Assembly (NCBI GenBank): GCA_019307135.1
Contig: JAFDKF010000018.1
Location: 11,321 to 75,320 of the forward strand
Source of the DNA: Deltaproteobacteria bacterium
GTDB lineage: Bacteria > Desulfobacterota > Desulfobacteria > Desulfobacterales > C00003060
Reading direction: 5' to 3'
DNA: 64,000 nucleotides
The notes under the pieces are model-generated. The model was not told the origin of the DNA, did no database searches, and saw only the letters and a program-made list of their open reading frames with translations. Both the position numbers and the translations under genes were made by a program. The stretch's first letter is position 1. Every line of letters begins with the position of its first letter. Positions 2,231 to 54,436 of the stretch are shown one piece after another.

Positions 2231-3553
2231 TTGAAGAGATACTTCAAATACTTTGCCCGAAAACGGGGCCTGCGCCTTATGACTATCGTCATCCTGGTTC
2301 TCCTGGTCGGTGCAGCCATACACACCGTGTACGCGAGCCAATCTATGATACAGGGTGCATTCGTTGCTGCGGTGGTTATTGCATTAGTAGCCTTTTTCAT
2401 CGCAAACGAAAGGGCCTGGCAGCAAACCCTTGAAGAGGAGCTAAAAGAAAAGACCAAAGACCTTGAAGATTATGCTCAGATGCTAAAATGTTCTGAGGAA
2501 AAATGCTGCTCTCTGGTAGAGTCAGCCGATGACCTGATCTATACGATAGGCAAAGATTGTAATGTCTTGTCTGTCAATCAATATAGCAGGAAACTCATGG
2601 GACACCGGTCTGAGGACATCATCGGCAAGAATATAAGTAACTTTATCGAATATGAAGGCAATAATGGTGTCCATTCTATCGTTGCAAGGATTTTCGAAAC
2701 CTCGGAGACTATTCTGCGAGAAGAGAAGGTAAAGATAGGGGATAAGGGGTATTGGCTCGACACAAAATACAGGGCTGTGCGACCAGACCAGGGTGAGGTA
2801 AATGCGGTTCTTGTGATTTCACGGGATATCACGGAACAGAAGAGGATGGAAGAACAGTTCTTTCACACGGCAAAACTGGCATCTATGGGGTCCCTTTCGG
2901 CCGGCGTTGCCCATGAAATGAACAACCCGATTGCCATTATCCTGGGTTTTACGGAACTATTGCTGGAAAGGGCCCCTGAGAATTCCAAAGAGTATGAAAT
3001 TCTCAAGACCATTGAAAGGCAAGGAAACAACTGTAAAAGAATCGTCGAAAATCTCCTTGCTTTTGCCAGGATTCCCAAAAAGACCACCACAGAGACTGAT
3101 GTGGTTGACGACCTACAAAATGTTGTCAATGTGGTTATGAATACCCTGCTGACCAGGAAGGTAGACCTCAAGACCGACATAGAAGAAACTCTCCCCACAG
3201 TGAGAGCGGACGGCCGGCAGCTCGAACAGGTGTTCTTGAACATTATTAACAATGCGGTGGCAGCTATGGATGGCGGGGGAATCCTGACCATCTCAGCACA
3301 CCGTTCCGGCGATATGGTCAATATAGGCTTTACAGATACAGGCCATGGCATATCCCCGGAGAATATGGACAAGATATTTGAACCGTTCTTTACCACCAAA
3401 GGAGAGGGAACAGGGTTAGGCCTTTCTGTGAGCTACGACATTGTGAAAAAGTTTGGAGGCGATATTCTGGTCAAAAGCCAAACCAGAGAGGAAGGCAAGG
3501 AGGCCGGGACTACCTTTACGGTGTTACTACCTGTGGCCGATGGGGAAGATTGA
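2231..3553 (+). CDS. Membrane-anchored PAS sensor histidine kinase
   Basis: Track ORF of 440 aa with an N-terminal TM segment and a PAS-like region. It has an H-box (HEMNNPIAIILGF), N-box (NIINNAVAAM), G1 (DTGHGI) and G2 (GTGLGLS). The TTG start at 2231 is uncertain; ATG 2279 is an alternative. Confidence 0.85.
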   Translation: MKRYFKYFARKRGLRLMTIVILVLLVGAAIHTVYASQSMIQGAFVAAVVIALVAFFIANERAWQQTLEEELKEKTKDLEDYAQMLKCSEEKCCSLVESADDLIYTIGKDCNVLSVNQYSRKLMGHRSEDIIGKNISNFIEYEGNNGVHSIVARIFETSETILREEKVKIGDKGYWLDTKYRAVRPDQGEVNAVLVISRDITEQKRMEEQFFHTAKLASMGSLSAGVAHEMNNPIAIILGFTELLLERAPENSKEYEILKTIERQGNNCKRIVENLLAFARIPKKTTTETDVVDDLQNVVNVVMNTLLTRKVDLKTDIEETLPTVRADGRQLEQVFLNIINNAVAAMDGGGILTISAHRSGDMVNIGFTDTGHGISPENMDKIFEPFFTTKGEGTGLGLSVSYDIVKKFGGDILVKSQTREEGKEAGTTFTVLLPVADGED

Positions 3554-3645
3554 AAATTGAGAATTGGGAATTGAGGATTGAGAATTGAATAACCAATAAC
3601 CAATAACGGCCACTTCAACCTCTCTGTGTGAGTGGCATTGTTGCC

Positions 3646-3698
3646 TGTGGGAGCGGCTTTCCAGCCGCGATCATCGCGGCTGGAAAGCCGCTCCCACA
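3646..3698. repeat. Perfect 53-nt palindrome (26-nt arms around one central base) between the kinase and receiver genes
   Basis: tgtgggagcggctttccagccgcgat-c-atcgcggctggaaagccgctcccaca, read directly. The element is REP-like, and its translation creates the false N-terminal extension of track ORF 3628..4140. Confidence 0.8.
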
Positions 3699-3717
3699 AA
3701 CATCAAAGGAGAAGATC

Positions 3718-4623: not shown

Positions 4624-5313
4624 TTAGTGTTCCAGCTTCATGCCCCATCCTTCAAACATGAACAAAATGGCAAAGCCGTACCAGACGGTGTAAACCACGT
4701 AAAAAATCAAGGAGAAGGTGACCATGCCAATACGGTCATCGATTTTTTGAGGTTCGATCTTGTAGTAGTTATAGGACGTCTCCACGGCCTTTTTCCTGAC
4801 CGTAGTAACCATCTTGGCCTCTTTAAACTTCTTCTGCGTCTTTAAGTTCTTATCCATCGCCTTCAGTGCGTTCCACCAGTTAAAAAGGACCCGCTTTTCG
4901 TCGTAGCCGTACTTGCCGGAGACCGCTTGCCCATTGTTTCTATACATGTCCTCTGCATCGGCAAGACAGTTTTCCAGGATCTTGGCCAGGTCACCGCTAA
5001 CCTTCAACTCTGCACCTGACGTGCTTACGGAGGCACCGCCGCTCTTAAAAAGTGGAGCGGTCTGCCCGGCCTGCTTCTCGTCCGCCATTTTTAAGGTCAC
5101 ATCCACAGAGTTCCCCTTGAACTTGTCTTCGACCCCTTTCTTGACCTCTGGAATATAATAGGCCGAGTTCTTTGATATGGTGTTATACAACTCGTCTAAG
5201 TATTCCAGACCGTTTTTGCCCTTGAAAATAGGCGCGAACATGATGAACAGCACCACGGTAAACGTCACCATCATGCCAAGGCCGCCATAAAACTCTTTTT
5301 TTCCCTCAATCAT
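4624..5313 (-). CDS. Bitopic membrane protein of unknown family (third gene of the CBS/TSUP operon, copy 1)
   Basis: Track ORF of 229 aa with hydrophobic helices at the N and C termini and a ~150-aa K/E-rich soluble middle. It overlaps the upstream permease stop by ATGA. Its paralogue is 7770..8456. Confidence 0.7.
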   Translation of the reverse strand: MIEGKKEFYGGLGMMVTFTVVLFIMFAPIFKGKNGLEYLDELYNTISKNSAYYIPEVKKGVEDKFKGNSVDVTLKMADEKQAGQTAPLFKSGGASVSTSGAELKVSGDLAKILENCLADAEDMYRNNGQAVSGKYGYDEKRVLFNWWNALKAMDKNLKTQKKFKEAKMVTTVRKKAVETSYNYYKIEPQKIDDRIGMVTFSLIFYVVYTVWYGFAILFMFEGWGMKLEH

Positions 5314-6611
5314 GATTTCGCCTCCTCTCCCTTAAGGACCCTAAGATTCCTGAAGAACGTGGCAGTCACCCAAATCGCAAACCCGCCGATAATAATGAAA
5401 AAGGCATAGATTCCGATCTGCTCCAGGACGTAGCACACCGTTTTTGATATGGTAATGACCTCCATGTCCTGCAACTTGGCCGGCAGGGCAAAGAACCGGT
5501 TGACAAAACCGGCTATAATGGCCATGGCGTAAAAGCCACGGATCGTGACACCCTTCACCACCTTTGTGACCATTGCGCCGACCTGGATACCGAGCAAGGA
5601 TCCTAAGAGCATGCCCGTGGCCAGGGTGTAGAAGATAAACCCGTAGATGGCGTACTGGCCTATCGCGGCATAGCTTGCCGTGAAGATGATCTGGAAGATG
5701 TCAGTTCCCACCGTGGTCATGGAGGAAACCCCCAGGACATAGACGAATATGGGAAAGGTCACAAAACCGCCGCCAACCCCCATAATCGCAGCCAGAAACC
5801 CGACAAAGAAACCGGCGAGGACCAAAAACACCCATGAAATCCCGCGTCCACCAGGGGTAAAGTCAAAATCGAACTTGACCATCGGAGGAAGCTTCATGGA
5901 CTGAAGCTTTTTGGGCAGATTACCCATCTCAACCCCTTCTTCTTTTCCACCATGGCCACCTGCTTCTGGTTCTGCTGCTGCTCCTGCCGCCTTCCTAGCC
6001 CTGAGAAAGTCGGTCCCCGCGTAGATTCCCAAAAACCCCAACATGATCGAGTAGACAACCGTAATAAATGCATCACTCATCACAGGATTGATCTCATAGA
6101 TCAAGCGATTAATGTACCCGCCCACTGTCGCTCCTGTGATGGAGCCGATCAAGAAGGTCACGGCCAGGGGCACGGACACGTTTCCTAACTTCCGGTGGAT
6201 CACGCTCCCCATGATCGCCTTGGCAAAGATGTGAAACAGGTCCGTTCCGACGACCAGGATGCCTTTGATGCCTGCGCTCATCAGGGCAGGAGTAATAACG
6301 AACCCGCCACCCGCGCCGATGCAGCCTGTGATCAGGCCCGCCATCGCACCGATAAGAATGGATATGATAAAGATACCGGTACCGTAAAACGCCGGGCTGT
6401 ACGCCTTCTTGCCGCCCAGGAATTGCGGCATGGCCCCGGCAATCTCATCAGCAAAAGCGACACCCAGGATTATAATGGGAACGATCAACAACCCGAGTGC
6501 AATCAGCCGCTTGCGGTCCCGAAGTATGGTGTTTGAGTTCTCGATTTCCCATTTGGCAAAGGATCTTGCCCCCATCATCATAAATTCGCCCCACTGTTTA
6601 AAAAAACTCAT
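5310..6611 (-). CDS. Double-length TSUP (TauE/SafE, DUF81) family anion permease, copy 1
   Basis: Two TSUP-like halves carry GxGGG motifs (GCIGAGGGFVITPALM, IMGVGGGFVTFPIF). I place the start at ATG 6611 (MSFFKQWGEF) because it aligns with the paralogue start MNFFRQWYEF. The track ORF extends to 6671 through a TTG. Confidence 0.8.
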   Translation of the reverse strand: MSFFKQWGEFMMMGARSFAKWEIENSNTILRDRKRLIALGLLIVPIIILGVAFADEIAGAMPQFLGGKKAYSPAFYGTGIFIISILIGAMAGLITGCIGAGGGFVITPALMSAGIKGILVVGTDLFHIFAKAIMGSVIHRKLGNVSVPLAVTFLIGSITGATVGGYINRLIYEINPVMSDAFITVVYSIMLGFLGIYAGTDFLRARKAAGAAAEPEAGGHGGKEEGVEMGNLPKKLQSMKLPPMVKFDFDFTPGGRGISWVFLVLAGFFVGFLAAIMGVGGGFVTFPIFVYVLGVSSMTTVGTDIFQIIFTASYAAIGQYAIYGFIFYTLATGMLLGSLLGIQVGAMVTKVVKGVTIRGFYAMAIIAGFVNRFFALPAKLQDMEVITISKTVCYVLEQIGIYAFFIIIGGFAIWVTATFFRNLRVLKGEEAKS

Positions 6612-6726
6612 GGCAAATCTCTCCTTTTCTGTATAGTTTTTGTGTATAGACCCAGTATCGTGTAGCAGCAACCTCTACCCCCCCCCCGTTACATCTGTTC
6701 ACACCCCCTTTCCATGCTTCGCAATT

Positions 6727-6800
6727 AGTCGAGTGGTCGAGTGGGAAAATGGTCAAGTGGTTGACGACTCGACTACTCAACGACTCGACTACTCAACCAA
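6727..6800. repeat. Hairpin repeat, family I (CGAGTGGTCGAGTGG / CGACTCGACTACTCAAC arms), between the CBS and permease genes
   Basis: The inverted arms were read directly. The same element lies at the equivalent place in the second operon copy (9861..9935), and a related copy is at 42363..42443. Confidence 0.6.
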
Positions 6801-6817
6801 CTAGGGCGCAGCCCCTT

Positions 6818-7087
6818 CTACTCCACTATGATCCTCCGACGCTGCATAACAACGCCTCGCCTCCCTTTTGAGTTCAGATTCCCTTCCAATCCGACTTGCT
6901 TCAGGGCATCCTCAAGCGTGATCATGCCCAAAACCTCCTTTCCCCGGGTTACGGCAACCCGCTTCAGGTCATTCTTGAGCATGACCTCGAGGGCCTCCAT
7001 GATCCTGTCTTCAGGACCAACAGAGGGTTTCAGCCCAACCTCTTCCTGGATCGGTATGATGATCGCTTTAACAGAAAGCCTTTTCAT
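6818..7087 (-). CDS. Single-CBS-domain protein (first gene of the CBS/TSUP operon, copy 1)
   Basis: The protein MKRLSVKAIIIPI...VLGMITLEDALKQ fits one CBS motif. I place the start at ATG 7087. The track ORF extension to 7186 is a translation of the sigma-54 promoter (see the rejected items). Confidence 0.75.
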   Translation of the reverse strand: MKRLSVKAIIIPIQEEVGLKPSVGPEDRIMEALEVMLKNDLKRVAVTRGKEVLGMITLEDALKQVGLEGNLNSKGRRGVVMQRRRIIVE

Positions 7088-7114: not shown

Positions 7115-7129
7115 GCAATGGGTATGCCA
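7115..7129 (-). promoter_or_regulatory. Sigma-54 (-24/-12) promoter P1
   Basis: The minus strand reads cTTGGCATacccaTTGCTc, with GG and GC separated by exactly 10 nt. It lies ~28 nt upstream of ATG 7087. Confidence 0.8.
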
Positions 7130-7252
7130 AGACACATGATGACGGGGAATTGGACCAACTAGAAGGAAATAAAGAGGATTATTCAAAAGTGGATGGGCCT
7201 TTGGCTGTGGCCCAGGATAGATGTCTGTCAGGATTTTTTACAGATTGTAAAA
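7130..7252 (-). promoter_or_regulatory. Upstream activating region shared with the locus at 21947..22070
   Basis: This region is colinear with 21947..22070 on the opposite strand. Conserved blocks include the 15-bp palindrome TTTACAatcTGTAAA (~115 bp upstream of -24), CTGACAGACATCT, TGGGCCAC and CTTTTGAATAAT. Confidence 0.6.
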
Positions 7253-7277
7253 GATGGGCGTGAATCGAATGAGGAAT

Positions 7278-7628
7278 GACAAACGTCAAAGGCAACCGTT
7301 CACAGAGCAACCGTCTTTTGTCATTGCGAGGAGTCCCGAATGGATCGGGACGACGAAGCAATCTCCAGGGTTTGGGATTAGGAAAGTCGTAACTTCTCAA
7401 TAAGTTGGGGCAAATCATTTTTTGCGACTATTCACTGGATTCCCGCTTTCGCGGGAATGACAGGCACTTGCACCCAATCGTCATTCCCGCGAAGGCGGGA
7501 ATCCAGTAGCTATTACCCGGACTTTCTGAGAACTTACGGAAAGTCTTCCTACTAGCCTTTCAGAGATTGCTTCGCTTCGCTCGCAATGACCGTTCGGTGA
7601 ACGCCCCCGTGAATGGTTACCGTCAACT
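7278..7628. mobile_element. Palindromic element, family F (GTCATTGCGAGG ... CCTCGCAATGAC core), hosting a nested family-H MITE
   Basis: The imperfect inverted arms are ggcaaccgttcac...gtcattgcgagg and ctcgcaatgac...gtgaatggttacc. The outer borders are approximate. Confidence 0.5.
7389..7537. mobile_element. MITE, family H (termini GTAACTTCTCAATAAGTTGGGG / CCGGACTTTCTGAGAACTTAC), copy H1, nested in the family-F element
   Basis: It is flanked by a perfect 8-bp direct repeat, ggaaagtc (7381..7388 and 7538..7545). The interior contains the hairpin ctggattcccgc...gcgggaatccag. Confidence 0.75.
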
Positions 7629-7769: not shown

Positions 7770-8456
7770 TTAATGACTCAGCTTCATACCCCATCCTTCA
7801 AACATGAACATGATGGCAAAGCCGTACCACAGGGTGTAAACCACATAAAAGATCAAAGAGAAGATCACAATGCCAATCTTGTCACCGATTTTTTGGGGCT
7901 CGATCTTATAGTAGTTATAAGACGACTCCACAGCCTTTTTCACCACCATGGCAATGATCTTGGCCTCCTTGAACTTCTTCTGCTTCTTCAGGTCCTTATC
8001 CATGGTCTTGGATGCCTTCCACCAGTTATAAAGGACCCGCCTCTCATCATAGCCGTATTTGCCCTTAACCTCTTCCCCTTTGTTATGATACATACTATCT
8101 GCATCAGCAAGGCAGTTTGCCAGAATCTTGCCCAGGTCGCCGGTGACCTTCAACTCTGCCGACGATGTGGTTACCGAGGCGCCGCCCTTCTCAAAGAGGG
8201 GAGCAGTCTGCCTGGCCTGTGTCTCATCCGCCATCTTCAAGGTCACAGTTACGGAGTTCCCGACAAACTCGTCGGTCGCTTCCTTGACCTTTGGAATGTA
8301 GTAGGCCGAGCCCTTGGATATGGAGTTATACAGGCTGTCCAGGTATTCCAAACCGTTCTGGCCCTTGAAGACAGGTGAAAATACGATAATCAGGACCACG
8401 ATAAAAGCCGCCATCATGCCAACGCCGCCATAAAATTCTTTCTTATGCTCAATCAT
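7770..8456 (-). CDS. Bitopic membrane protein of unknown family (copy 2)
   Basis: Track ORF of 228 aa, colinear with 4624..5313, with the same ATGA overlap with the permease gene. Confidence 0.7.
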   Translation of the reverse strand: MIEHKKEFYGGVGMMAAFIVVLIIVFSPVFKGQNGLEYLDSLYNSISKGSAYYIPKVKEATDEFVGNSVTVTLKMADETQARQTAPLFEKGGASVTTSSAELKVTGDLGKILANCLADADSMYHNKGEEVKGKYGYDERRVLYNWWKASKTMDKDLKKQKKFKEAKIIAMVVKKAVESSYNYYKIEPQKIGDKIGIVIFSLIFYVVYTLWYGFAIMFMFEGWGMKLSH

Positions 8457-9748
8457 GCTGTCACCTCCCCCTTAAGTGTTTTGATATTAAAGAGGAACGT
8501 CCCGATTACCCAGACCCCAAACCCGGCGATTACAATGAAGAAGGCCCAGACGCCAATGGTGTCTAGAATATCACCCGCCTGTTTTGATATCGGAATGTAA
8601 CCCAAGGCGCCCAACTTGCCTGGCAGGGCAAAGGCACGATTGACAAAACCGGCCAACACAGCCATGGCATAGAATCCACGGATCGTGATCCCCTTCACGA
8701 CCTTTGTGGTCATGGCCCCGACCTGGATGCCCAGCAAGGACCCCAGGAGCATACCCATTGCCAGGGTATAGAAAATAAAGCCGTAGATGGCGTACTGGCT
8801 GATTGCGGCATATCCTGCCGTGAAGACGATCTGGAAGATGTCCGTTCCCACTGTGGTCATGGACGAAACCCCCAGGACATAAACAAAGATAGGGAAGGTC
8901 AGAAAACCGCCGCCAACCCCCATGATGCCTGCTGCCATCCCCACGAGGCAACCGGCCAAGACCAGAAAGATCCACGAAATGCCGCGACCACCGGGCGTAA
9001 AGTCATAATCGAATTTGACCATGGGAGGAATCTTCATGGCCTGAAGCTTTTTCGGGAGATTTCCCATCTCCGCCCCTTCTTCTTTTCCACCATGGGCCCC
9101 TGTATCAACGGCTCCACCTGCCGCGGCCTTTCTTGCCTTGAGGAAGTCCGTCATGGCGTAGATCCCCAGAAAACCCAACATGCCAGAGTAGACCGTCGTA
9201 ATAAAGGCATCACTGAGCACCGGATTGATCTCATAAAAAAACCGGTTGATCACCCCGCCGAGTGTCGCCCCTATAATGGCGCCGATCAAGAAGACCGCGG
9301 CCAGAGGCACAGAGACGTTTCCTAACTTCCTGTGGATCACGCTCCCCATGATCGCCTTGGCAAAAATGTGAAAAAGGTCCGTTCCAACCGCTAGAATACC
9401 CTTGATGCCTGCGCTCATCAGGGCAGGAGCGATCACGAACCCCCCGCCTGCGCCGATGCAGCCTGTGATGAGCCCGGCGCCCATGCCTATGGCGATGGAT
9501 ACGATAAAGATAAAGGTATTGTAAAACGCCGGGCTATACGCCTTCTTGCCACCCAGCAAGTCCGGCAGGACCCCGCTAATCGGCTCAGCAAAAGCGACAC
9601 CCACGATTATAATGGGAACAATCAACAAGCCGAGTGCGATTAGCCTCTTGCGGTCGCCAAGTATGGTCTTCGAGTTGTCAATTTCCCACCTGGCAAAGGC
9701 TTTTGTCCCCATCATCATAAACTCATACCACTGTCTAAAGAAATTCAT
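8453..9748 (-). CDS. Double-length TSUP (TauE/SafE) family permease, copy 2
   Basis: Track ORF of 431 aa, colinear with copy 1, with the same GxGGG motifs and the same Gly/Glu-rich inter-half linker. Confidence 0.8.
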   Translation of the reverse strand: MNFFRQWYEFMMMGTKAFARWEIDNSKTILGDRKRLIALGLLIVPIIIVGVAFAEPISGVLPDLLGGKKAYSPAFYNTFIFIVSIAIGMGAGLITGCIGAGGGFVIAPALMSAGIKGILAVGTDLFHIFAKAIMGSVIHRKLGNVSVPLAAVFLIGAIIGATLGGVINRFFYEINPVLSDAFITTVYSGMLGFLGIYAMTDFLKARKAAAGGAVDTGAHGGKEEGAEMGNLPKKLQAMKIPPMVKFDYDFTPGGRGISWIFLVLAGCLVGMAAGIMGVGGGFLTFPIFVYVLGVSSMTTVGTDIFQIVFTAGYAAISQYAIYGFIFYTLAMGMLLGSLLGIQVGAMTTKVVKGITIRGFYAMAVLAGFVNRAFALPGKLGALGYIPISKQAGDILDTIGVWAFFIVIAGFGVWVIGTFLFNIKTLKGEVTA

Positions 9749-9860
9749 GGCAAATCTCTCCTTTTCTGTATACGTTTGTGTACAGGCTCAATATCCTGTG
9801 GAAAAAATATCTCCCCTCCTCGTTACGTCTATTCACACCCCCTTTCTATGCTTCGCAATT

Positions 9861-9935
9861 AGTCGAGTGGTCGAGTGGGAAAATGGTCAAGTGGTTAACG
9901 ACTCGACCACTCAACACACTCGACTACTCGACCAA
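9861..9935. repeat. Hairpin repeat, family I (copy in operon 2)
   Basis: It has the same sequence and position as 6727..6800. Confidence 0.6.
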
Positions 9936-9957
9936 CTGGGGCCAAGCCCCTGATTTC

Positions 9958-10227
9958 CTATTCCACCACAATCCTCCGGCCGTGAATAATAACGCTTCGA
10001 CTCTCTTTTGACTTCAGATCCCCTTCCAATCCGACTTGCTTCAGGGCATCCTCAAGCGTGATCATGCCCAGAACCTCCTTTCCACTGCTTACGGCAATCC
10101 GCTTCAGGTCATTCTTCAGCATCACCTCGAGGGCCTCTGTGATCCTGTCTTCAGGACCAACAGAGGGTTTGAGCCCAACATCTTCTTTAATCGGTATGAT
10201 GATCTCTTCAACAGCAAGCCGCTTCAT
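9958..10227 (-). CDS. Single-CBS-domain protein, copy 2
   Basis: MKRLAVEEIIIPIKED... aligns with copy 1. I prefer ATG 10227, because the track start at 10254 is a GTG inside the terminus of the adjacent MITE. Confidence 0.75.
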   Translation of the reverse strand: MKRLAVEEIIIPIKEDVGLKPSVGPEDRITEALEVMLKNDLKRIAVSSGKEVLGMITLEDALKQVGLEGDLKSKESRSVIIHGRRIVVE

Positions 10228-10242
10228 GCCGGTCCTTTCAGT

Positions 10243-10440
10243 GTAGGCGTTCACAGGTTCAGAGGTTCAGGGTTCACGGTTCACCGTTCAGAAGTCAGAG
10301 ATCAGAAGTCAGAGATCAGAAGTCAGAGATCAGAAGTCAGAGATCAGAAGTCAGAGATCAGAAGTCAGAGATCAGAAGTCAGAGATCAGAATTCTATTTT
10401 TTTAACTGCCCCCTGAACCTCTGAACCCGTGAACGGTTAC
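10243..10440. mobile_element. Hairpin MITE, family A (arms built of GGTTCAG heptads, termini GTAACCGTTCACGGG-like), copy A1
   Basis: The left arm is gtaggcgttcacaggttcagaggttcagggttcac and the right arm is ctgaacctctgaacccgtgaacggttac. The core is seven exact tandem copies of cagaagtcagagat (10289..10386). Confidence 0.8.
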
Positions 10441-10462
10441 GGGAGCGTTGCGTCCGTCAAGG

Positions 10463-10477
10463 GCAAGATACGTACCA
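10463..10477 (-). promoter_or_regulatory. Sigma-54 (-24/-12) promoter P3
   Basis: The minus strand reads tcTGGTACgtatcTTGCCc with GG-N10-GC spacing. It lies just downstream of the activator gene stop and ~235 nt upstream of ATG 10227, and MITE A1 fills the leader. Confidence 0.7.
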
Positions 10478-10664
10478 GAGACCAGCCGGGCATGGCTGAT
10501 TGTTCATAACATATTGATATTACAACAAAGCGAGCATTGCTGGCCTCAGCATATTTTTAAGGGGATAGCAGGCCTGTCAACTAATAGGTTACAGTTGAAG
10601 TGGATATCAGGAGGCGGGGACGGGGAAAGCGCTTGAAATTACTTGAGCTTGATGGGAGCAACTT

Positions 10665-12068
10665 TTAGGTTACATGCTTCTTGAATTCCTCTGCATCGAT
10701 CTTCTCGTGTTTCATTATTCTATGCAGGTATTGCCGCTGAACCCCTGCCTGGTCTGCGGCCCGGGAAATGTTGCCTCTGTTTTGCTGAAGAACGCCCTGA
10801 ATGTATTCTCTATGAAATGCCTTGATCACGGCCTCTTTGGCCTCCCTGAAAGGAAGCCCGTAAATGGCCTCGTTGAAATACGGCAGCGGCCTCGAGTCAG
10901 TCCTTTCAGGCATGAGATCTTCAAGCCTGATTCGATCAGACTGACACAGGATCACTCCACGCTCAATCACATTTTCTAACTGTCTGACATTTCCCGGCCA
11001 CTCCCGAGCCATGAGCATGGACATGGCCTTGGGCTCGATATCACGTATGTCTCTATTGTTGAGTTTGCTGTATTTTTCAACAAAGTGATGCACCAGAAGC
11101 GGTATATCCTCCCGACGCTCACGGAGTGCAGGCAGGCGAAAACAAATCACATTCAGCCGATAGAAGAGGTCCTCTCGGAATTTCTTCTCACCTATACGCT
11201 GCCTGAGATCATGGTTAGTGGCAGCCACAAACCGAATGTCAGCATCCCTGGTATTCAAGCCGCCCACCGGCTTGTACTCTCCCTCCTGGAGAAGGCGCAA
11301 AAGCTTCGCCTGCATGACCGTGTTCAGCTCTCCAACCTCATCCAGGAACAGGGTCCCCTTGTTGGCCTCCTCCACCAGGCCCTTCTTATCATTCCAGGCG
11401 CCGGTGAATGCGCCCTTCTTATGTCCAAAAAGCTCGCTTTCAATAATCTGTTCAGGGATGGCTGTGCAGTCGATGGTTACAAGAGGCTTGTCACGCCGGT
11501 CGCTGTAGGCATGGATCGCCTTGGCCACAACTTCTTTTCCGGTGCCACTCTCCCCTTGAATCAAGATCGTTGCCATCGATTTGGCCACCTGCTTTATCCT
11601 GCTTAGAATCGACATCATGGCCAGGCTGGACCCGACAATGGAAGGAAACGCCTTCTGCTGTTCAAGGGACTGGCGCAAGGCAACGTTCTCGCGGGCCAGT
11701 GCCTGCCAGTCTAAGGCCCTGCGAAGGGTCAACAGGATGCGTTCTTTTCGGAAGGGTTTTGCAATATAGTCAAAGGCCCCCTTTCGTGTGGCTTCTACCG
11801 CGGTTTCAATCGTTGCATAGGCAGTCATGATAATAACGTCCGAAGAAGGTTGAATCCTTTTGATCTCCTCAAGCAAGGCAATCCCATCCATCTTGGGCAT
11901 CTTCAGGTCGGTGATGATCAGGTTAAAGGGTTCTCTGTGGATCATTTCGATCGCCCTCAACGGGTCAGATTCTGTCATCACGTCATGTTCGGTCTTTCCG
12001 GTGATGATCCTCCTGAGAAGGGCCAGCATATCCTTTTCGTCATCAACAATCAAAATCCTACCCTTCAT
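10665..12068 (-). CDS. Sigma-54-dependent response regulator (NtrC family: REC + AAA+ + HTH)
   Basis: Track ORF of 467 aa with REC motifs (ILIVDDE, ITDLKMPKMDG), Walker A (GESGTGKE), the GAFTGA loop (GHKKGAFTGA) and a C-terminal HTH. Confidence 0.9.
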   Translation of the reverse strand: MKGRILIVDDEKDMLALLRRIITGKTEHDVMTESDPLRAIEMIHREPFNLIITDLKMPKMDGIALLEEIKRIQPSSDVIIMTAYATIETAVEATRKGAFDYIAKPFRKERILLTLRRALDWQALARENVALRQSLEQQKAFPSIVGSSLAMMSILSRIKQVAKSMATILIQGESGTGKEVVAKAIHAYSDRRDKPLVTIDCTAIPEQIIESELFGHKKGAFTGAWNDKKGLVEEANKGTLFLDEVGELNTVMQAKLLRLLQEGEYKPVGGLNTRDADIRFVAATNHDLRQRIGEKKFREDLFYRLNVICFRLPALRERREDIPLLVHHFVEKYSKLNNRDIRDIEPKAMSMLMAREWPGNVRQLENVIERGVILCQSDRIRLEDLMPERTDSRPLPYFNEAIYGLPFREAKEAVIKAFHREYIQGVLQQNRGNISRAADQAGVQRQYLHRIMKHEKIDAEEFKKHVT

Positions 12069-13272
12069 GACCCATCCCCTTCTTGGCTCTCAGCAAGACT
12101 GTAAACGTCGTTCCTCGGGGTCTCCGGTGCCCATCTTCGGTGCTGCTTTCACACGTAATAGTTCCTTCGTATTTCGTTACAATCCCGTGACTCACGAACA
12201 GCCCCAATCCTGTCCCCTCCCCTTCGCTCTTGGTCGTGAAGAAGGGGTCGAAGATATTCTCCACATGTTCTTCCTTGATGCCGTGTCCGTTGTCTCGGAC
12301 CGTGACGCGCACCTTCCCTGGCCCTGCATCCGGAGCTGTCTTGATTTCCAACATGCCTTCACCCTTCATAGCTGCGGCCGCATTGTTGATCAGGTTCAAG
12401 AAGACCTGTTGCATCTGGCGCAAATCCCCCTTTACCCTGGGAAGGCCGGAAGCCAGTTCCATCCGGAGTTCAACATTGTTCATCTCCAGAGAATGCTCTA
12501 CAACACCAATAATCTCATTAATAGCCTCATTGATGTCACAAGATTCAGACTCCCCCTCACCCTGTCGGGCAAAACTCAGGAGATTTTCCACCACTTGCTT
12601 GCAATGAAGGCTGTGGCGCTCAATGGTTTTCAAGTCCTGGTAGTTCTGGCTCTCTTTATCAAACTTCTCCAACAAAAGATCCGTAAAGCCAAGCATAACA
12701 CCTAAGGGATTGTTCAGTTCATGGGCCACGCCGGCAGCCAGGGTCCCCATTGAAGCCAGCTTTTCGGTATTGATGAGCTGGCTTTCGAGTTTTTTGTTTT
12801 CAGTAATGTCCCTGGCAATACATAGAACAGATACGACCCTTTCCTGCTCGTCTTTTAAGGGCATAAGGTTGGCGCTCAGCCATGTGTAATGCTCACCCGT
12901 CTTTACCATGAACTCATCCCGCACGCTTTTCCCAAACCGAAAGACCATGCGGATAAGCTTGAGCTGCTGAGATGCAACCTCTTCCGAGAAAAGGACAGAC
13001 AGCGGCTTGCCAAGAAACTGCGAAGGGGTCCCCCCGAAAAAATTAGCGGTAAAATTGTTCAAGGATTGAAAACGGCCGGATTTATCAACCGTAAAGATAA
13101 AGTCTTCTGTGCTTTCGATCAAACTACGGTACTTTTCTTCAGACTTCTTCAGTTCCTCAGTCTTCCCGGCGACCTGCTGCCGGAGACTGCGAACCCGCTT
13201 CTCTTCGTATAATAGAACAGCGCCTATACCTGTAACGATAAAAGCAATGCTTGTGCACAGTACCCAGAACAT
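12058..13272 (-). CDS. PAS sensor histidine kinase
   Basis: Track ORF of 404 aa with an N-terminal TM segment and a PAS region, plus the motifs HELNNPLGVMLGF, LINNAAAAM, DNGHGI and GTGLGLF. It overlaps the downstream regulator gene by 11 nt. Confidence 0.85.
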   Translation of the reverse strand: MFWVLCTSIAFIVTGIGAVLLYEEKRVRSLRQQVAGKTEELKKSEEKYRSLIESTEDFIFTVDKSGRFQSLNNFTANFFGGTPSQFLGKPLSVLFSEEVASQQLKLIRMVFRFGKSVRDEFMVKTGEHYTWLSANLMPLKDEQERVVSVLCIARDITENKKLESQLINTEKLASMGTLAAGVAHELNNPLGVMLGFTDLLLEKFDKESQNYQDLKTIERHSLHCKQVVENLLSFARQGEGESESCDINEAINEIIGVVEHSLEMNNVELRMELASGLPRVKGDLRQMQQVFLNLINNAAAAMKGEGMLEIKTAPDAGPGKVRVTVRDNGHGIKEEHVENIFDPFFTTKSEGEGTGLGLFVSHGIVTKYEGTITCESSTEDGHRRPRGTTFTVLLRAKKGMGHEG

Positions 13273-21354: not shown

Positions 21355-21702
21355 GTGTTCAAAATGACCCCGAACATAATCAGAAACTTCGTCACCAAAA
21401 GGGCCACGAGGCGCTATCCCCATGAGGTAAGAGCGCCCTTTGAAGGCGCGCGGGGCGAGCTGTATAACGAAATCGAAAAATGCACGTTTTGCAGGATTTG
21501 CGCTGTCAAGTGCCCTTCACAATGCATCACGGTGGACAAAAAGACGGCCACATGGGAATGCAACCCCTTTGCCTGCGTGTATTGCGGCATATGCGTGGAT
21601 GTCTGCCGGGAAAAATGCCTGCACCAGAAATGCCAGTACCGGCCTCCGGTTTGCGAACGGGAGATTATTTTCATGAAGGGCAAGACCAAAAAAACGGGGT
21701 AG
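21355..21702 (+). CDS. echF: Ech hydrogenase 2x[4Fe-4S] ferredoxin subunit (NuoI-like)
   Basis: Cys motifs are CTFCRICAVKCP and CVYCGICVDVC. The track ORF begins at 21310, but a GTG at 21355 or ATG at 21364 after aaggggg is more likely. The stop codon lies inside the first bases of MITE A4. Confidence 0.8.
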   Translation: MFKMTPNIIRNFVTKRATRRYPHEVRAPFEGARGELYNEIEKCTFCRICAVKCPSQCITVDKKTATWECNPFACVYCGICVDVCREKCLHQKCQYRPPVCEREIIFMKGKTKKTG

Positions 21703-21932
21703 GCGTTCACAGGTTCAGAGTTCACCGTTTCAGCCGTCGTAGCCTACGGCTACTTTCAGCCGTCGTAGCTGCGCTACTATGGCGAAGTCGGCATGGCGAA
21801 GTCGGCTCAGGGTTACCTTTCCTTTGTTCGGTCAACCCTGAACCCGTGAACCCTGAACCTCTGAACCCGTGAACCCTGAACCTCTGAACCCTGAACCCTG
21901 AACCTCTGAACCGTGAACCCGTGAACGGTTAC
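21699..21932. mobile_element. Family A MITE, copy A4, with an 8-bp target duplication
   Basis: It is flanked by aaaacggg (21691..21698 and 21933..21940). The arms are gtaggcgttcacaggttcag and ctgaaccgtgaacccgtgaacggttac. The core carries the sub-repeat cagccgtcgtagc...ctatggcgaagtcggc, which is also seen in 23253..23551. Confidence 0.8.
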
Positions 21933-21946
21933 AAAACGGGTTTTCA

Positions 21947-22070
21947 CTTTTACAATCTGTAAAGAATACTGACAGACATCTTTGATGGGCCACGGGCAAA
22001 GTTCCGTCCTCTTTTGAATAATATTACCTGTTTTCAACTACTTGTTCCGATTACCGGTCATCATTTGTCT
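21947..22070 (+). promoter_or_regulatory. Upstream activating region, paralogous to 7130..7252
   Basis: It has the same ordered blocks, including the palindrome TTTACAatcTGTAAA at its 5' end. Confidence 0.6.
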
Positions 22071-22085
22071 TGGCACACCCATTGC
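22071..22085 (+). promoter_or_regulatory. Sigma-54 (-24/-12) promoter P2
   Basis: cTTGGCACacccaTTGCTc matches the consensus with exact GG-N10-GC spacing, ~37 nt upstream of GTG 22122. Confidence 0.85.
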
Positions 22086-22121
22086 TCTTTCTCACTCCAA
22101 ACGACTGAGAAGGTAAATGCC

Positions 22122-24512: not shown

Positions 24513-24708
24513 CTCGTTCCAATCGGGCGGGGATAAACCCCGTTCCTACGTAGGGTCGGGATTTACTCCCGACCGAAAAGCACCACAAAGTCCCCCTTTT
24601 TTAAAGGGGGATTTAGGGGGATTTTAGAAAAAAAAAGGGGGGGGGATTTTCTCCCACATAGGCACAGAAGCGAGAAAACAGAATAATGTGATGAAGTAAA
24701 CCTAGTTA

Positions 24709-25860: not shown

Positions 25861-26031
25861 GGTAGCCGTTCACGGGTTCAGGGTTCAGAGGTTCAGGGTT
25901 CAGTTAAAAGAATAGAGGTCAGAGATCAAAGGTCGGAGGTCTGGCTTCTGATTTCTGACTTCTGATCTCTGACTTCTGATCTCTGACTTCTGAACGGTGA
26001 ACTCTGAACCTGTGAACGCTTACGCTAAAGG
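25861..26031. mobile_element. Family A MITE, copy A6, with a 10-bp target duplication
   Basis: It is flanked by gtagaaaaat (25851..25860 and 26032..26041). The arms are ggtagccgttcacgggttcagggttcag and ctgaacctgtgaacgcttac. Confidence 0.75.
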
Positions 26032-26593: not shown

Positions 26594-26780
26594 CCACCTG
26601 TGCGGTTAGCATTCACCGTGTTTTGTCAATGAGTTGATGGTTATGAGGGAGACGTCGTAGGGGCGGCTTTACGCCGCCCGCCAAATCAATTCGGGCGAGG
26701 TAAACTCGCCCCTACGGGAAGCCGCCGATCAGAATTAGATCATTCGGAAGGGCTCAAGAATCACCCTAACCGCACAGGTC
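26594..26780. mobile_element. Family B MITE, copy B2, with a perfect 9-bp target duplication
   Basis: The termini are ccacctgtgcggttag and ctaaccgcacaggtc, flanked by gaacttttt on both sides (26585..26593 and 26781..26789). Confidence 0.85.
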
Positions 26781-28546: not shown

Positions 28547-28917
28547 CCTAAAGTGATCGGTTCAAGGTTCAGGGTTCAAGGTTCAAAGGTTATAGTCTAC
28601 TGATATCCTTAACTTTATAACAGAATGCTCAGATTAGCCTCTTTCACCCATCAGGTGTCAGGTGTCAGGTGTCAAAACCCTGAACACTGAAACCTGAACA
28701 CTGAAACCTGAACACTGAAACCTGAACTTTGCTAACAGCCAGTTAGGCCTGCCCTGCCCGCCCTGGCGCGACAGCCTTGGACAGATGTGTCATCCCTCTC
28801 ATCCCGGTCTGGGCCAGGGGCGCGACATCCCAAGATGATTTTGGTGCCCATGTAGTCCCGGTCTGGGCCAGGGGCTCTTCAACCGGGAACCGTGAACGTT
28901 GAACCGCTCAACCCAGG
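28547..28917. mobile_element. Composite MITE, family C (termini CCTAAAGTGATCGGTTC... / ...GAACCGCTCAACCCAGG), copy C1, with nested heptad and hairpin inserts
   Basis: The flanking 5-mers are ttata and tttta. The interior has caggtgt x3, gaacactgaaacct repeats and two gcccgccctggcgcgac/cccggtctgggccagggg units. Confidence 0.7.
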
Positions 28918-36792: not shown

Positions 36793-37011
36793 CTATTTCA
36801 TGAATTCTTATGTGAATTTATTGCATTTTCGTGTGGCGGGCGGTTCGCTTTGACAGCTTGCCGTCTTTATGATATATGGGCTTAACCTTTACGTATTGTA
36901 AAAAAAAATGACACAGATAGGCGCTCTATCCTTTTCAAAGCCTACCCTTCTATTCACTTAATATCAATTATATGAATAACCTGCTGCAATTTTATCGACA
37001 GCATCGTATCT

Positions 37012-37026
37012 TGGTACACCCTTTGC
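37012..37026 (+). promoter_or_regulatory. Sigma-54 (-24/-12) promoter P4
   Basis: cTTGGTACaccctTTGCCa has GG-N10-GC spacing. MITE C3 begins 10 nt downstream. Confidence 0.65.
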
Positions 37027-37036
37027 CACTTAATTA

Positions 37037-37202
37037 CCTAAAGTGATCGGTTCCAGGTTCAGGGTTCAAGGTTCAGGGTTGACAACCTTTGAACCTATAA
37101 ACTTTGAACGGTGAACTTTCTTTATTGACGCGTCATCCTTTTGTTAACAGCCAGTTAGGGCTCTTCAACCGGGAACCGTGAACGTTGAACCGCTTAACCC
37201 AG
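37037..37202. mobile_element. Family C MITE, copy C3, with a 5-bp target duplication
   Basis: It is flanked by aatta (37032..37036 and 37203..37207), with termini as in C1 and C2. Confidence 0.8.
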
Positions 37203-37332
37203 GAATTAGTAAAGCCCTTTTCGTGGCACCGAGAAACCTTGGACATTTTCAACGACGAATTGTGGTGTTTTTGAAAAACCGTAAGGGCAAAAGTTTCGTA
37301 AAAGTTTCATCAGTCTCTTGTGGACCAATCTT

Positions 37333-38586
37333 ATGAATTTAGCGCTCAAGACCGCTGATACGGCTATACCTTATGATCCGCGCAAAATTTTGATAGTCGA
37401 CGATGAACCTCGCATGTGTGACAGCCTGAAGGCTTTGTTAAGCAGTGAGGGCTATGAAATACACATATATAATAGTGGCAAAGAGGCTATAAAGCACCTA
37501 GAAAAGAATCGTGTCGACTTGGTTCTTCTGGATATAGTTATGCCGGAAATAGATGGGCACCGGGTCATGGATTACATAAATAGTCAGGACACAGAGACCT
37601 TAGTCATTTTCATAACGGGGTACGCTTCCGTAGAATCAGCCATAGAGGCTCTTAGGGGTAGGGCCTACGATTACCTGAAAAAGCCGTTTGAGTATGAGGA
37701 ATTGTTAAAGGCAGTCAAAAATGCTCTTGATGAAAAAGCGTTAAGAAGTGAACGGAAGCGAGTCGAGGAGGCACTTCGCAAAGCTCGGGATGAACTGGAA
37801 CTCAGGGTGAAGGAGGAAACTGCGGAACTGACAAGGACTAATGAACTACTTCACCAGGAGATCATAGGGCGCAAGCGGGCGGGGGATCAGATTCGCAGGC
37901 TGAGCCACGAGCTTTTAGTGGCGCAAGAAAGTGAGCGGCAAAGGATTTCTCGTGAGTTGCACGACGTGTTGGGGCAAGAGCTTTCTGCCTTGAAAATCGG
38001 CCTTGACACCTTTATTGATAATCAAGCGGAAGTGCCTCCTGGCACAAGACAAAGGCTGGCCGAACTTTCCAAAACGGTTCGGGGAACTATAATGTCTGTC
38101 AGAGATCTGGCCTATAACTTACGGCCGCCCAGTCTGGATCAGCTCGGACTTGGTCAGACGATTCTCCAGTGTTGCGAAGAGTTCTCCGCCAAGAGCGAAG
38201 TAAAGGTTGACTTTTTTGCCACCGGCATAGATAAGTCAACACTCGATTTTAATACGAAAATTAACCTGTACCGCCTGATTCAAGAAGGGCTCAACAACGT
38301 TAAGAAACATGCTGACGCCACCGAAGTGACCATCCGGTTGGTCGCCTCTTTTCCTGACATTATTCTTCGCATCGAAGACAATGGCAAAGGTTTTGACATT
38401 CAGAATCGATTGGCCTCAGCACTTGATGAAAAACGTATGGGACTTCGGAGCATGGAAGAAAGGGTGGCGCTGCTTGGCGGAAAAATGAGGATCGAATCCC
38501 GCGCCATGCAGGGCACGAAAATTCTTATAGAGATCCCTATCAAGGACAAAAAGAGCGGCCAAAAAGAAAACCGTTCTGATTGTTGA
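37333..38586 (+). CDS. Hybrid sensor kinase (REC + coiled coil + HisKA_3 + HATPase_c), paralogue of 30744..32189
   Basis: The track ORF begins at 37318 (TTG), but ATG 37333 is more likely. Motifs are ILIVDDEP and [15 protein letters not shown]. The 3' third is nearly identical in DNA to copy 1. The stop is displaced 7 codons because the ancestral TAA is now AAA. Confidence 0.85.
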
Positions 38587-42500: not shown

Positions 42501-43340
42501 ATGAAAAACCCGATAGCTCAAGGATTCTCACCAGAGAGGTGCGTCGCCATATGCATTTTGTTCGTCGGAGCCCTCGCCGGAGCGGTCATCTATTTCGACG
42601 CGCAATCCCACCTGTTGAGGTTCTTTGATTGGCTTGAGGAGATTGGCGCATGGGCTCCACTTCTGTTCATTCTTATCGACATGTTAGTCGTGGTCTTTGT
42701 CTTGCCAGGGGTCATGCTGACGCTTGGCGCCGGATTTATGTTCGGTGTTCTAAAAGGCTCCTTGTACGTTGTCATCGGCACAACTCTTGGGGCGACGATC
42801 GCATTCATGATCGCGCGCCATTTTTTCGGCGAAAAGACCTCAAGATTCGTCCTGGCCCACTCAAAGTTGAAGCTGGTTAATGACGAGTTTACACGCAAGG
42901 GTTGGAAGATCGTTCTGCTAACGCGCCTTGTGCCGTTCTTTCCCTTCAAGCTCTCCAATTACTTTTTCGGGCTCATGCAAATCTCTCTGCGGCATTTCAT
43001 CTTAGGAGTTTTCTTCGGAATCTGGCCAATCACGATCAACAACGTTTATATCGGTTCTCTTGCTGCTGACCTCGCAACGCTTGGCTCGCGCAGCTCTTCA
43101 AGATCGCAGGCGGAATGGGCCATGTATGGCATCGGCCTTATCATAACAATCGCAGCGGTTGTTTACATCACTCGCCTGGCCCGCAGAGCGCTGGATGACT
43201 ATGGTCTGGAGGCGTTGACAGGTTCAGAGTTCACCGTTCAGAAATCAGAGATCAGAAATCAGAAGTCAGAGATCAGAAATCAGAAGTCAGAGATCAGAAA
43301 TCAGAAATCAGAAGCCAGACCTCCGACCTCTGATCTCTGA
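42501..43340 (+). CDS. TVP38/TMEM64 (DedA-related) family membrane protein
   Basis: The characteristic block is FVLPGVMLTLGAGFMFG. I prefer ATG 42501, because the track start at 42393 reads through a hairpin repeat. The last ~44 codons are encoded by MITE A9. Confidence 0.75.
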   Translation: MKNPIAQGFSPERCVAICILFVGALAGAVIYFDAQSHLLRFFDWLEEIGAWAPLLFILIDMLVVVFVLPGVMLTLGAGFMFGVLKGSLYVVIGTTLGATIAFMIARHFFGEKTSRFVLAHSKLKLVNDEFTRKGWKIVLLTRLVPFFPFKLSNYFFGLMQISLRHFILGVFFGIWPITINNVYIGSLAADLATLGSRSSSRSQAEWAMYGIGLIITIAAVVYITRLARRALDDYGLEALTGSEFTVQKSEIRNQKSEIRNQKSEIRNQKSEARPPTSDL

Positions 43341-54042: not shown

Positions 54043-54436
54043 TCCGCAGATTACGCAGATTACATGGATTACATGGAATTGTTGGCATCCTTCATTCCTC
54101 GGTTTACACTTTTCAAGAATGCGGGCGCCAAGAGATAAATTCTTTTGTTCGTACTTTTTGGTGTCAGGTGTCAGGTGTCAGGAGCAAGAAACGCAAGATC
54201 TGTACTGTTCTCAAGGCGTAAGCCGCAAACCCGAACACTGAAACCAGGCACCAGGTGTCAGGTGTCAGGTGTCAGGTGTCAGAAACTGAAAAAGCAAGAC
54301 CTGTACTGTTCTCAAGGCGTAAGCCGCAAACCTGAACACTGAAACCTGAACACTGGTCAATAGGTGTAAACTACAAAATGAAGGATGCCGAATTGTTCTT
54401 TAATAATCTGCGAGAATCGGTGAAATCTGTGGATGG
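54043..54436. mobile_element. Composite ~390-bp insertion with ~60-bp imperfect terminal inverted repeats in the atpF-atpA spacer
   Basis: The arms are cgcagattac...ggcatccttcattcctcggtttacac and ggtgtaaactacaaaatgaaggatgcc...aataatctgcg. The interior holds two ~100-bp tandem units with caggtgt heptads and gaacactgaaacct. The flanking ~18-mers are ggattgagggattggggg and ggattgagaaattgggga. Confidence 0.7.

Follow-up and report, generated by a model that had tools for sequence, protein, structure and literature searches.

An IS66-type miniature inverted-repeat element in the leader of a predicted sigma-54-dependent transporter operon from a Desulfobacterales bacterium

In Neisseria gonorrhoeae, a Correia element, which is a MITE (a miniature transposable element with inverted repeats), lies downstream of the promoter in the mtrCDE leader, where it is co-transcribed with the operon and has its inverted repeats cleaved by RNase III (PMC10969869). 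Two reports describe the inverted-repeat ends of these elements as giving an RNA duplex long enough for this enzyme (PMC10969869; PMC2649163). A related arrangement is found in a stretch of 64,000 nt, hereafter the window, from a Deltaproteobacteria bacterium (Desulfobacterales; C00003060; assembly GCA_019307135.1, contig JAFDKF010000018.1, positions 11,321-75,320 of the forward strand). Here, a 198-bp MITE of the IS66-family type (10243..10440, minus strand) is placed between a conserved sigma-54 promoter, called P3, and the start codon of the first gene of a transporter operon, called operon 2. We consider it probable that P3 is the ancestral promoter of this operon, and that an IS66-type MITE inserted into its leader, was remodelled there, and has since been tolerated as a co-transcribed passenger with no selected regulatory design.

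The likeness to the gonococcal case lies in a MITE of ~150-200 bp located between the promoter and the first start codon, and transcribed, here by prediction, together with the operon. However, Correia elements are associated with TA duplications, have no known transposase partner, and carry their own sigma-70 promoters and a site for integration host factor (IHF), whereas the leader element has IS66-type ends, 8-bp duplications in its family, heptamer arms and a 14-mer array, is located behind a sigma-54 promoter, and has no predicted promoter of its own.

Three other groups of repeats should be compared with it. The published ends of the IS66 family begin GTAAGCGTCC and GTAACCGTCC, i.e., GTAAGCG... 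or GTAACCGT... (PMC12888890), and the group of IS66 elements with a single open reading frame (ORF), or ISBst12-like group, shares with the family of the leader element the GTAACCGT/GTAAGCG ends, the 8-bp duplications, and 1.5-kb partners with a DDE_Tnp_IS66 transposase. The leader element differs from this group in its length of 198 bp, its lack of coding capacity, and its expanded GGTTCAG heptamer arms, which are absent from the transposase-encoding copies. The BOX, ERIC, and RUP-type repeats are also dispersed intergenic modules with a variable number of internal tandem units and a strong predicted RNA structure, but their sequences are unrelated, and terminal inverted repeats are clear in the family described here, which also possesses target duplications and a transposase partner. 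To our knowledge, BOX has none of these three features. Finally, the TAACTGA heptamers of Beggiatoaceae and long simple sequence repeats occur mainly in intergenic DNA and often lie a few nt before start codons (PMC4679880). Short tandem heptamers are likewise found in intergenic DNA of the window near start codons (six copies, 11-50 nt), although in this case they are sub-terminal in a transposable element and arranged in inverted sets, the unit and the host phylum are others, and no preference for start codons is seen in the metagenome sample.

The leader element and its family

The element is bounded by the family termini GTAGGCGTTCACAGGTTCA and GTAACCGTTCACGGGTTCA, with ends beginning GTAACCGTTCAC..., and each of its two 19-nt termini agrees with the family pattern without a mismatch. 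The whole system (kinase, activator, promoter, element, and operon) is on the minus strand. It has two arms of 30 nt each, 90% complementary: in the RNA sense, the 5' arm (10411..10440) contains the terminal inverted repeat and GGTTCAG heptamers, and the 3' arm (10243..10272) ends 15 nt before the ATG. Between them is a tandem array (10288..10391) of the unit TCAGAAGTCAGAGA, or CUUCUGAUCUCUGA in the RNA sense, which comprises 7.4 copies that are 100% identical and in which CAGAAGTCAGAGAT occurs exactly 7 times. The 104 nt of this array (29 C, 45 U, 15 G, and 15 A in the RNA sense; 71% C+U) are pyrimidine-rich and have no robust predicted pairing. The initial annotation had reported seven exact repeats and long complementary GGTTCAG/CTGAACC arms, both of which are confirmed, and had called the insert a MITE, a proposal supported by the terminal repeats, the duplications in the family, the multiple copies, and the empty sites in related genomes. 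The element is non-coding, the sole ORF across its 198 bp being a repeat-driven artefact on the opposite strand. When compared with canonical copies (in the window and in L089), the leader copy lacks GGTCAGAGATCAGAGGTCGGAGGTCTG, which is the 5' half of the inner hairpin of the family, and has extra 14-mer units instead.

The leader copy belongs to a dispersed family. The 19-nt terminus GTARSCGTTCAYRGGTTCA is present 16 times in the window and 0 times in shuffled sequences, and an exact scan of public metagenome contigs with GTAACCGTTCAYGGGTTCA returned at least 120 contigs, many of the matches lying at contig ends, which fits a repeat at which assemblies break. In the common plan of the copies, one terminal repeat is followed by GGTTCAR heptamers in a run, then by a variable core, by a run of the complementary heptamers, and by the other terminal repeat. 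Eight-bp flanking duplications are perfect in 10 of the 26 two-ended copies and have one mismatch in a further 4, whereas a shifted control, using the next 8 bp, gave 0/25 with two mismatches or fewer. The ends of the family read GTAACCG, GTAGGCG, or GTAAGCG, and in at least three metagenome contigs (L110, L145, and L115) such a terminus stands beside a transposase gene. In L110, the termini of an element of 1,546 bp (816-2361) are GTAACCGTTCACGGGTTCA and the complement of GTAACCGTTGACGGGTT, and the ORF of this element, of 488 amino acids, matches PF03050 DDE_Tnp_IS66 (E = 1.4e-26); L145 and L115 are similar. Since the same ends flank these transposase-encoding elements of ~1.5 kb, the family is made up of non-autonomous derivatives of single-ORF IS66-family insertion sequences, or of elements mobilised by them. 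Readings of the repeats as CRISPR-like or REP/BIME-like were rejected in view of the inverted repeats at the termini, the presence of target duplications, and the existence of a transposase partner.

This family was not found described in the literature searched, whether by element sequence (coincidental primer matches only) or under MITEs of sulfate reducers and heptanucleotide repeats of Desulfobacteraceae, and a 2024 review of prokaryotic MITEs makes no mention of IS66-derived ones. Thus, the family appears to be undescribed and abundant in Desulfobacterales metagenomes, and what is documented here is a dispersed group of MITEs with IS66-type ends that is common in sediment metagenomes, where it breaks short-read assemblies.

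A second case of presence and absence is provided by a canonical copy at 25862-26023 of the window, since in L012 (~9500-9520) the flanking genes abut (TAGAATG). In the window, the two genes are kept apart by ~230 nt including the MITE, and the ribosome-binding site of the downstream one lies in a new context (GGAGGAACACGTATG). Another member of 234 bp, at 21699-21932, has a different core (CAGCCGTCGTAGCC..., with ATGGCGAAGTCGGC repeats) and a perfect 8-bp duplication, AAAACGGG, and sits directly upstream of the enhancer of a sigma-54-like promoter at 22071. Copies in the window are found upstream of genes in both orientations, and six of them end 11-50 nt before a start codon. A preference for insertion 5' of genes was not seen: ORF distances around 27 complete copies were noisy, and gene ends were abutted as often as gene starts.

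Promoter P3 and the history of its leader

P3 (10463..10477; TGGTACgtatcTTGC / TGGTACGTATCTTGC) has the -24/-12 form TGGTAC-N5-TTGC, with the GG at -24, the GC at -12, and the TGGCAC-N5-TTGC-like spacing of the sigma-54 signature. The window contains 4 matches to the relaxed pattern TGGYAYN5TTGC, where 0.62 would be expected, and none of 100 shuffles reached 4. The motif had been predicted previously, and it is indeed present on the minus strand, 236 nt from ATG 10227; the promoter of the paralogous operon, P1, is ~27 nt from its ATG at 7087, in good agreement with the ~235 and ~28 nt estimated before.

The gene following P3, which encodes a CBS-domain protein, was located in 80 related loci from species-representative genomes, all of them Desulfobacterales/Desulfobacteraceae isolates or metagenome-assembled genomes, and the DNA upstream of each was inspected; in the closest of these loci the transporter encoded by the operon is 88-89% identical in amino acids. 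The motif TGGTAY-N5-TTGC precedes the orthologous CBS gene of operon 2 in 8 loci (L001-L005, L011, L014, and L076). In the orthologs, a palindrome of the form TGTAACCT-N4-GTTnACA is found ~100 nt upstream of the P3-type motif, with a second palindrome ~180 nt upstream, and these palindromes, together with an IHF-like block, keep fixed distances from it. In the window, candidate activator site 1, TGTAACCTAAAAGTTGCTC (10656..10674), overlaps the stop codon of the activator gene, and its position and half-sites are conserved in L002-L005, L011, L014, and L076. Candidate activator site 2 is the palindrome TGTAACCTATTAGTTGACA (10575..10593), also conserved in orthologs, whose pattern has a single match in the window against 0.04 expected. 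Between the two putative binding sites and P3 lies a candidate IHF site, TATCAATATGTTA (10507..10519; consensus WATCAANNNNTTR), and the AT-rich block TAATATCAATATGTTA, which fits this consensus, is identical in L002-L004.

Upstream of P3, separated from the CBS gene by an intergenic stretch of 437 nt, is the gene for an NtrC/AtoC-type sigma-54-dependent response regulator (10665..12068, minus strand; PF00072 and PF00158, the latter with E = 2.9e-68). This protein has a weak, sub-threshold match to HTH_8 (PF02954; E = 1.5e-4, 21.9 bits against a 22-bit cutoff), and its matches to the AtoC and NtrC models of NCBIfam are below the equivalog cut-offs. A look-up of the exact activator protein returned no entry. 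The first gene of the regulatory pair (12058..13272, minus strand) encodes a PAS-HisKA-HATPase sensor histidine kinase (PF08448, PF00512, and PF02518). Taking into account that the conserved motif, the palindromes, the IHF-like block, and the adjacent activator gene compose the classical architecture of an activator-dependent sigma-54 promoter, we take P3 to be a real and ancestral promoter of operon 2, and the adjacent NtrC-type regulator is likely its activator. P3 would then probably be driven by the PAS kinase and the NtrC-type regulator through two sites of the TGTAAC...GTTACA type and an IHF-induced bend. In this way, a sigma-54 regulatory unit, consisting of a kinase, an activator, two activator sites, an IHF-like site, and a -24/-12 promoter, has been defined in an uncultured lineage of sulfate reducers.

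Several relatives have the promoter and no element. The distance from promoter to start codon is 56 nt in L004 and L005 and 65 nt in L014, and the leaders of these loci (~30-40 nt) align with the flanks of the element in the window (e.g., ...GCAAAACGCTCCTTGTAACTGAAAGGGCCGACGTG in L005). Precise removal of 10243-10440 from the window would leave ...CTCCCTTTGACTGAAAGG... Empty sites in orthologous loci, which had been proposed as a check on the MITE, are therefore available in these three loci. In L003, a member of the family occupies the same place, with ACTGAAAG on both sides and a core resembling the one found at 21699-21932 of the window. A left junction without TTTGACTGAAAG is common to the window and L002, which accounts for the absence of a target duplication at the window copy; the MITE status of the leader copy is drawn from its family and from its counterpart in L003. 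Of the element, L002 has kept no more than the first 12 nt, after which come ~200 nt that are unrelated to it and rich in palindromes. A related MITE (658-900) is found in L011, which is more distant, directly after the -12 element of the orthologous promoter, with the duplication GCCCATTG and with ends GTAATTAGTCAGGTTCA and the complement of GTAACTACTCAGGTTG; this is an independent insertion.

L001, a metagenome contig whose identity to the window is otherwise ~100%, lacks 58 nt including the 5' arm and has the same seven 14-mers. In L202, from another sample, the contig breaks exactly at the array, with at least seven units. L001 is not relied on here because, as this break illustrates, assembly artefacts at such repeats are a real concern. 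The differences of L001 from the window comprise the loss of the MITE 5' arm (10383-10440), a 102-nt in-frame deletion in the AAA+ lid region of the activator (10923-11024, removing REWPGNVRQLENV...), the loss of an octamer hairpin with a CBS protein cut to 75 amino acids (~9845-10009), and a 31-nt difference in an ATTGAGA heptamer array (3549-3580); they are either population variants or assembly artefacts. The metagenome samples JGI 3300033148 and 3300033153 contain this organism.

These sequences would most simply be explained by one insertion, in the ancestor shared by the lineages of the window, L002, and L003, after which deletion, turnover of the core, and slippage took place in an order that is reconstructed. 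In this account, an ancestor of the window, L001, L002, and L003 would have received the MITE in a leader of ~30-40 nt, at the target ACTGAAAG, just 5' of the Shine-Dalgarno sequence. The promoter-side target duplication plus 4 nt would have been deleted later, the 5' half of the family inner hairpin would have been lost, and the 14-mer unit would have been amplified by slippage to seven identical copies. The Shine-Dalgarno-like GAAAGGA (10233..10239, minus strand), which is part of the target ACTGAAAG or lies beside it, is retained from the ancestral leader.

The leader transcript, passenger or regulatory device

Transcription from sigma-54 promoters normally starts ~12 nt after the GC of the -12 element, and from this usual spacing the start of P3 is predicted near 10451. 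The element would then extend from ~+12 to 15 nt before the ATG, with GAAAGGA located 3 nt past the stem. A scan of 9900-10750 for sigma-70 promoters and intrinsic terminators was negative for promoters within or past the element and for terminators in the sense of the leader, and no second sigma-54-like or sigma-70-like site was found between 10227 and 10462. The proposal that any transcript made from P3 includes the element is supported by this arrangement, in which the predicted start (~10451) precedes the first nucleotide of the element (10440).

The leader RNA is predicted to fold with -80 kcal/mol (z = -5.9 with respect to shuffles). The robust part of this fold is limited to the outer stem, of ~25-30 bp and with a duplex energy of -50.5 kcal/mol, while no robust pairing is predicted for the 138 nt enclosed by the arms, which the centroid leaves unpaired. 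The initial annotation anticipated a very stable extended hairpin; a long stable stem is indeed predicted, but "extended" overstates a structure whose interior has no robust pairing. A riboswitch or another known leader RNA was rejected, there being no meaningful Rfam match (none at the gathering score in the window, and only chance-level matches in 9800-10700 at E ≤ 1) and the structure being absent or different in the orthologs. Strand-specific G·U pairing in the inner hairpin, as a sign of selection at the RNA level, was also rejected on inspection by eye, since copies occur in both orientations. Partition-function folding gave a mean unpaired probability of 0.67 for the Shine-Dalgarno sequence and of 0.41-0.67 in the orthologs with empty sites; as the former value is within the latter range, occlusion of the ribosome-binding site is not predicted.

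The three genes of operon 2 are free of stop codons and disruptions, and between the window and L002 or L003 their ratio of non-synonymous to synonymous substitutions (dN/dS) is 0.10-0.30, with dS reaching 0.52. Purifying selection thus persists in lineages that carry the insert, which argues against silencing and is consistent with an operon 2 that has stayed functional with its altered leader.

Transcripts from P3 would accordingly be expected to have a 5' untranslated region (UTR) of ~224 nt, in which a stem of ~30 bp (~-50 kcal/mol) closes a 138-nt loop holding the pyrimidine-rich 14-mer array, and the native ribosome-binding site, 3 nt past the stem, would stay open. RNase III could plausibly act on a 30-bp RNA duplex, and Rho could plausibly load on a 104-nt array with C over G and without robust predicted pairing. 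Any effect on expression, whether through cleavage of the stem by RNase III, an altered 5'-end-dependent decay, or Rho loading on the array, would be a side-effect of the insertion. If the leader copy does affect the fate of the mRNA, a sigma-54 example would be added to the Correia/mtrCDE precedent.

The leading alternative, which was the idea of the initial annotation, is that the MITE hairpin has been kept to give the mRNA of operon 2 a half-life or translation of its own, either by protection of the 5' end or as an RNase III site. The position of the element suits such a role, with a stem of -50 kcal/mol that begins ~12 nt from the predicted 5' end and stops 3 nt before the Shine-Dalgarno sequence; an insert persists at this site in four related sequences, the genes of which differ by a dS of ~0.5, and related inserts occur in other leaders (the independent one of L011 in the same leader, and a GGTTCAG hairpin after a promoter at 37012), with the RNase III-cleaved Correia element of the gonococcal mtrCDE leader as a precedent (PMC10969869). 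However, the pairing is not conserved among the carriers, as L002 has the 12-nt end only, L001 is without the 5' arm, and L003 has another core; moreover, L004, L005, and L014 lack the element, copies elsewhere lie upstream of genes in both orientations, metagenome copies abut gene ends as often as starts, and the accessibility predicted for the Shine-Dalgarno sequence is unchanged. Comparative data therefore lean against a selected role for the hairpin, and we regard this explanation as unlikely.

It is more doubtful that P3 has fallen into disuse, with transcription starting at a promoter contained in or created by the element, or with the operon decoupled from its activator by the insertion. 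MITEs such as Correia can carry outward promoters (PMC10969869), and the promoter scan covered the sigma-70 consensus only. Nevertheless, no sigma-70-like or second sigma-54-like site is available in the 10227-10462 interval, a mere 15 nt separate the element from the ATG, and the operon genes are under purifying selection. In addition, the P3 region, the activator sites, and the regulator gene are intact in the carrier lineages, at 92-93% identity, which would be unexpected if the promoter were idle, so that this possibility seems improbable.

A broader and bolder proposal can also be formulated. The GGTTCAG MITEs might be an undescribed, very widespread, IS66-derived family of Desulfobacterales that lands repeatedly in short sigma-54 leaders and has been co-opted as a set of exchangeable 5'-UTR modules, in which the arm duplex and the pyrimidine-rich tandem core would serve as entry points for RNase III or Rho and would fix paralog-specific post-transcriptional set-points. 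Three sigma-54 leaders would be cases of this: the operon 2 site, the independent insert of L011, and the hairpin after the 37012 promoter. We consider it highly speculative and very improbable.

In Moraxella catarrhalis, the number of AGAT repeats in the uspA2 leader switches or tunes expression. That the seven 14-mers are a comparable hypermutable tract, whose copy number tunes or switches operon 2, is the least credible explanation and is very unlikely: the 100% identity of the units implies recent slippage, their number differs among copies of the family, and tandem repeats in the 5' UTR are known to modulate expression (PMC4679880), but both other assemblies have seven units (L001, and L202 with at least 7 and a break at the array), no evident read-out that depends on phase is offered by a 14-nt period within a loop that is non-coding and unpaired, and an environmental anaerobe is not known to need a contingency locus for a transporter operon.

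A remodelled and tolerated passenger in the leader of an ancestral promoter is therefore the interpretation we prefer, with a selected role for the hairpin disfavoured because the hairpin is not conserved among carriers, relatives have empty sites, copies occur in both orientations, and gene ends are abutted as often as starts. Some observations weigh against this interpretation. The flanks of the leader copy, CTTTCAGT and GGGAGCGT, do not form a target duplication; no IS66 transposase gene is found within the 64-kb window; and the 8-bp target duplication typical of IS66 is taken from general ISfinder descriptions. The unlike cores of the three carriers could reflect independent insertions into a hot spot, and the maintenance of an insert across lineages at dS ~0.5 is also compatible with a selected function. 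Finally, the use of P3, its start site, and any effect on the RNA are predictions, whereas the identities of P3 and of the MITE, the empty sites, and the lasting purifying selection on the operon are shown by the sequences. On balance, the leader insertion is regarded as a well-characterised but ordinary event.

The paralogous operon and other features of the window

Operon 2 starts with the gene for the CBS-domain protein (9958..10227, ATG 10227, minus strand; 89 amino acids, PF00571), followed by a TauE/SafE-family membrane transporter of 431 amino acids (8453..9748, minus strand; PF01925, E = 2.5e-34) and by a conserved 228-amino-acid protein (7770..8456, minus strand), which has no family match in Pfam or NCBIfam and is 75% identical to its paralog at 4624-5313. 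The paralogous operon 1 (7087..4624, minus strand), which lies downstream, has the same order (CBS, TauE, and a protein of 229 amino acids), and the two copies share 75-79% protein identity and ~80-81% DNA identity. Taking into account this level of identity and the fact that the tandem arrangement of both copies is also found in the related genomes L001, L002, and L008, the duplication must be old.

P1, the promoter of operon 1 (7115..7129, minus strand; TGGCATACCCATTGC), is a sigma-54-like motif considered here for comparison, and the orthologs of operon 1 are preceded by a different motif, TGGCAYACCCATTGC, from those of operon 2. The DNA upstream of P3 has one chance 9-mer in common with that of P1, whereas P1 and a further sigma-54-like promoter, P2 (22071), share 30 9-mers in blocks, among which the long ones, TTTTACAATCTGTAAA, CTGACAGACATCT, and CTTTTGAATAAT, are all missing at P3. 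It had been claimed that P3 lacks the enhancer blocks of P1, and this is correct. The contrast drawn between both promoters stands insofar as they are different sigma-54 promoters with unrelated activator sites, but it is less remarkable than was implied, given that the duplication is old and that each type of promoter is conserved elsewhere with its own copy of the operon. The difference would reflect two old paralogs under two different activators, with no recent replacement of a promoter. Thus, two old paralogous transporter operons seem to answer to different activators.

P2 (22071, plus strand; TGGCACACCCATTGC) is located upstream of a gene for a receiver-domain protein of 169 amino acids, and the blocks it shares with P1, including the palindrome TTTTACAATCTGTAAA, lie at 7130-7330 (minus strand) and 21933-22086 (plus strand). 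This suggests that P1 and P2 may form one regulon under another activator. In L012, L038, and L063, a promoter of the P1/P2 type precedes a receiver gene, with the CBS gene coming next. A fourth sigma-54-like motif, TGGTACACCCTTTGC (37012-37026, plus strand), has a GGTTCAG/TGAACC hairpin within ~10 nt (37036-37115) with the alternative end CCTAAAGTGATCGGTTC, and the DNA upstream of it (~36885-36935) resembles the enhancer block of P1 and P2. The next gene (37318-38586) encodes a hybrid response-regulator/HisKA_3 kinase.

The CBS gene of operon 2 has a dS of 0.12-0.14 between the window and L002 or L003, which is ~4-fold below that of the adjacent TauE gene (~0.52), and the promoter region is 92-93% identical; a recombination boundary, or an extra constraint on the 5' part of the operon, could explain these values. 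Between the CBS and TauE genes, both operons have an octamer tandem-repeat hairpin, (GTCGAGTG)n...(CACTCGAC)n, at 9862-9934 and 6728-6797. The same gap holds unlike short tandem-repeat hairpins in relatives, with GGAGTGAT and CGTAACC units in L003 and GAGCTAAAGT and GGAATTCAG units in L002, and none in some others. In both paralogs, the block GGAAAGGGGGTGTRAAYAGAYGTAAC (~9819-9848), just past the octamer hairpin, is conserved in close orthologs and recognisable, though diverged, in distant ones.

Other families of short GC-rich intergenic palindromes, e.g., GTAGGGGCGGGTTTATCCCGCCC...CTAC and GTCATTCCCGCGAAGGCGGGAATCCAGT, are found at 7434-7507, 24523-24576, 26656-26716, 59150-59208, 60687-60759, and 3638-3706, and palindromes of these types are also nested within MITE copies of metagenome contigs. 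Further heptamer arrays (GGTTCAA x11.6, CAGGTGT, TCAGAAA x10.9, and AACACTGAAACCTG) and a 101-bp tandem duplication are located at 28559-28727, 54160-54355, 58995-59077, and 43238-43313. The window as a whole is unusually rich in repeats of period 7, and Tandem Repeats Finder (TRF) reports 97 rows for its 64 kb.

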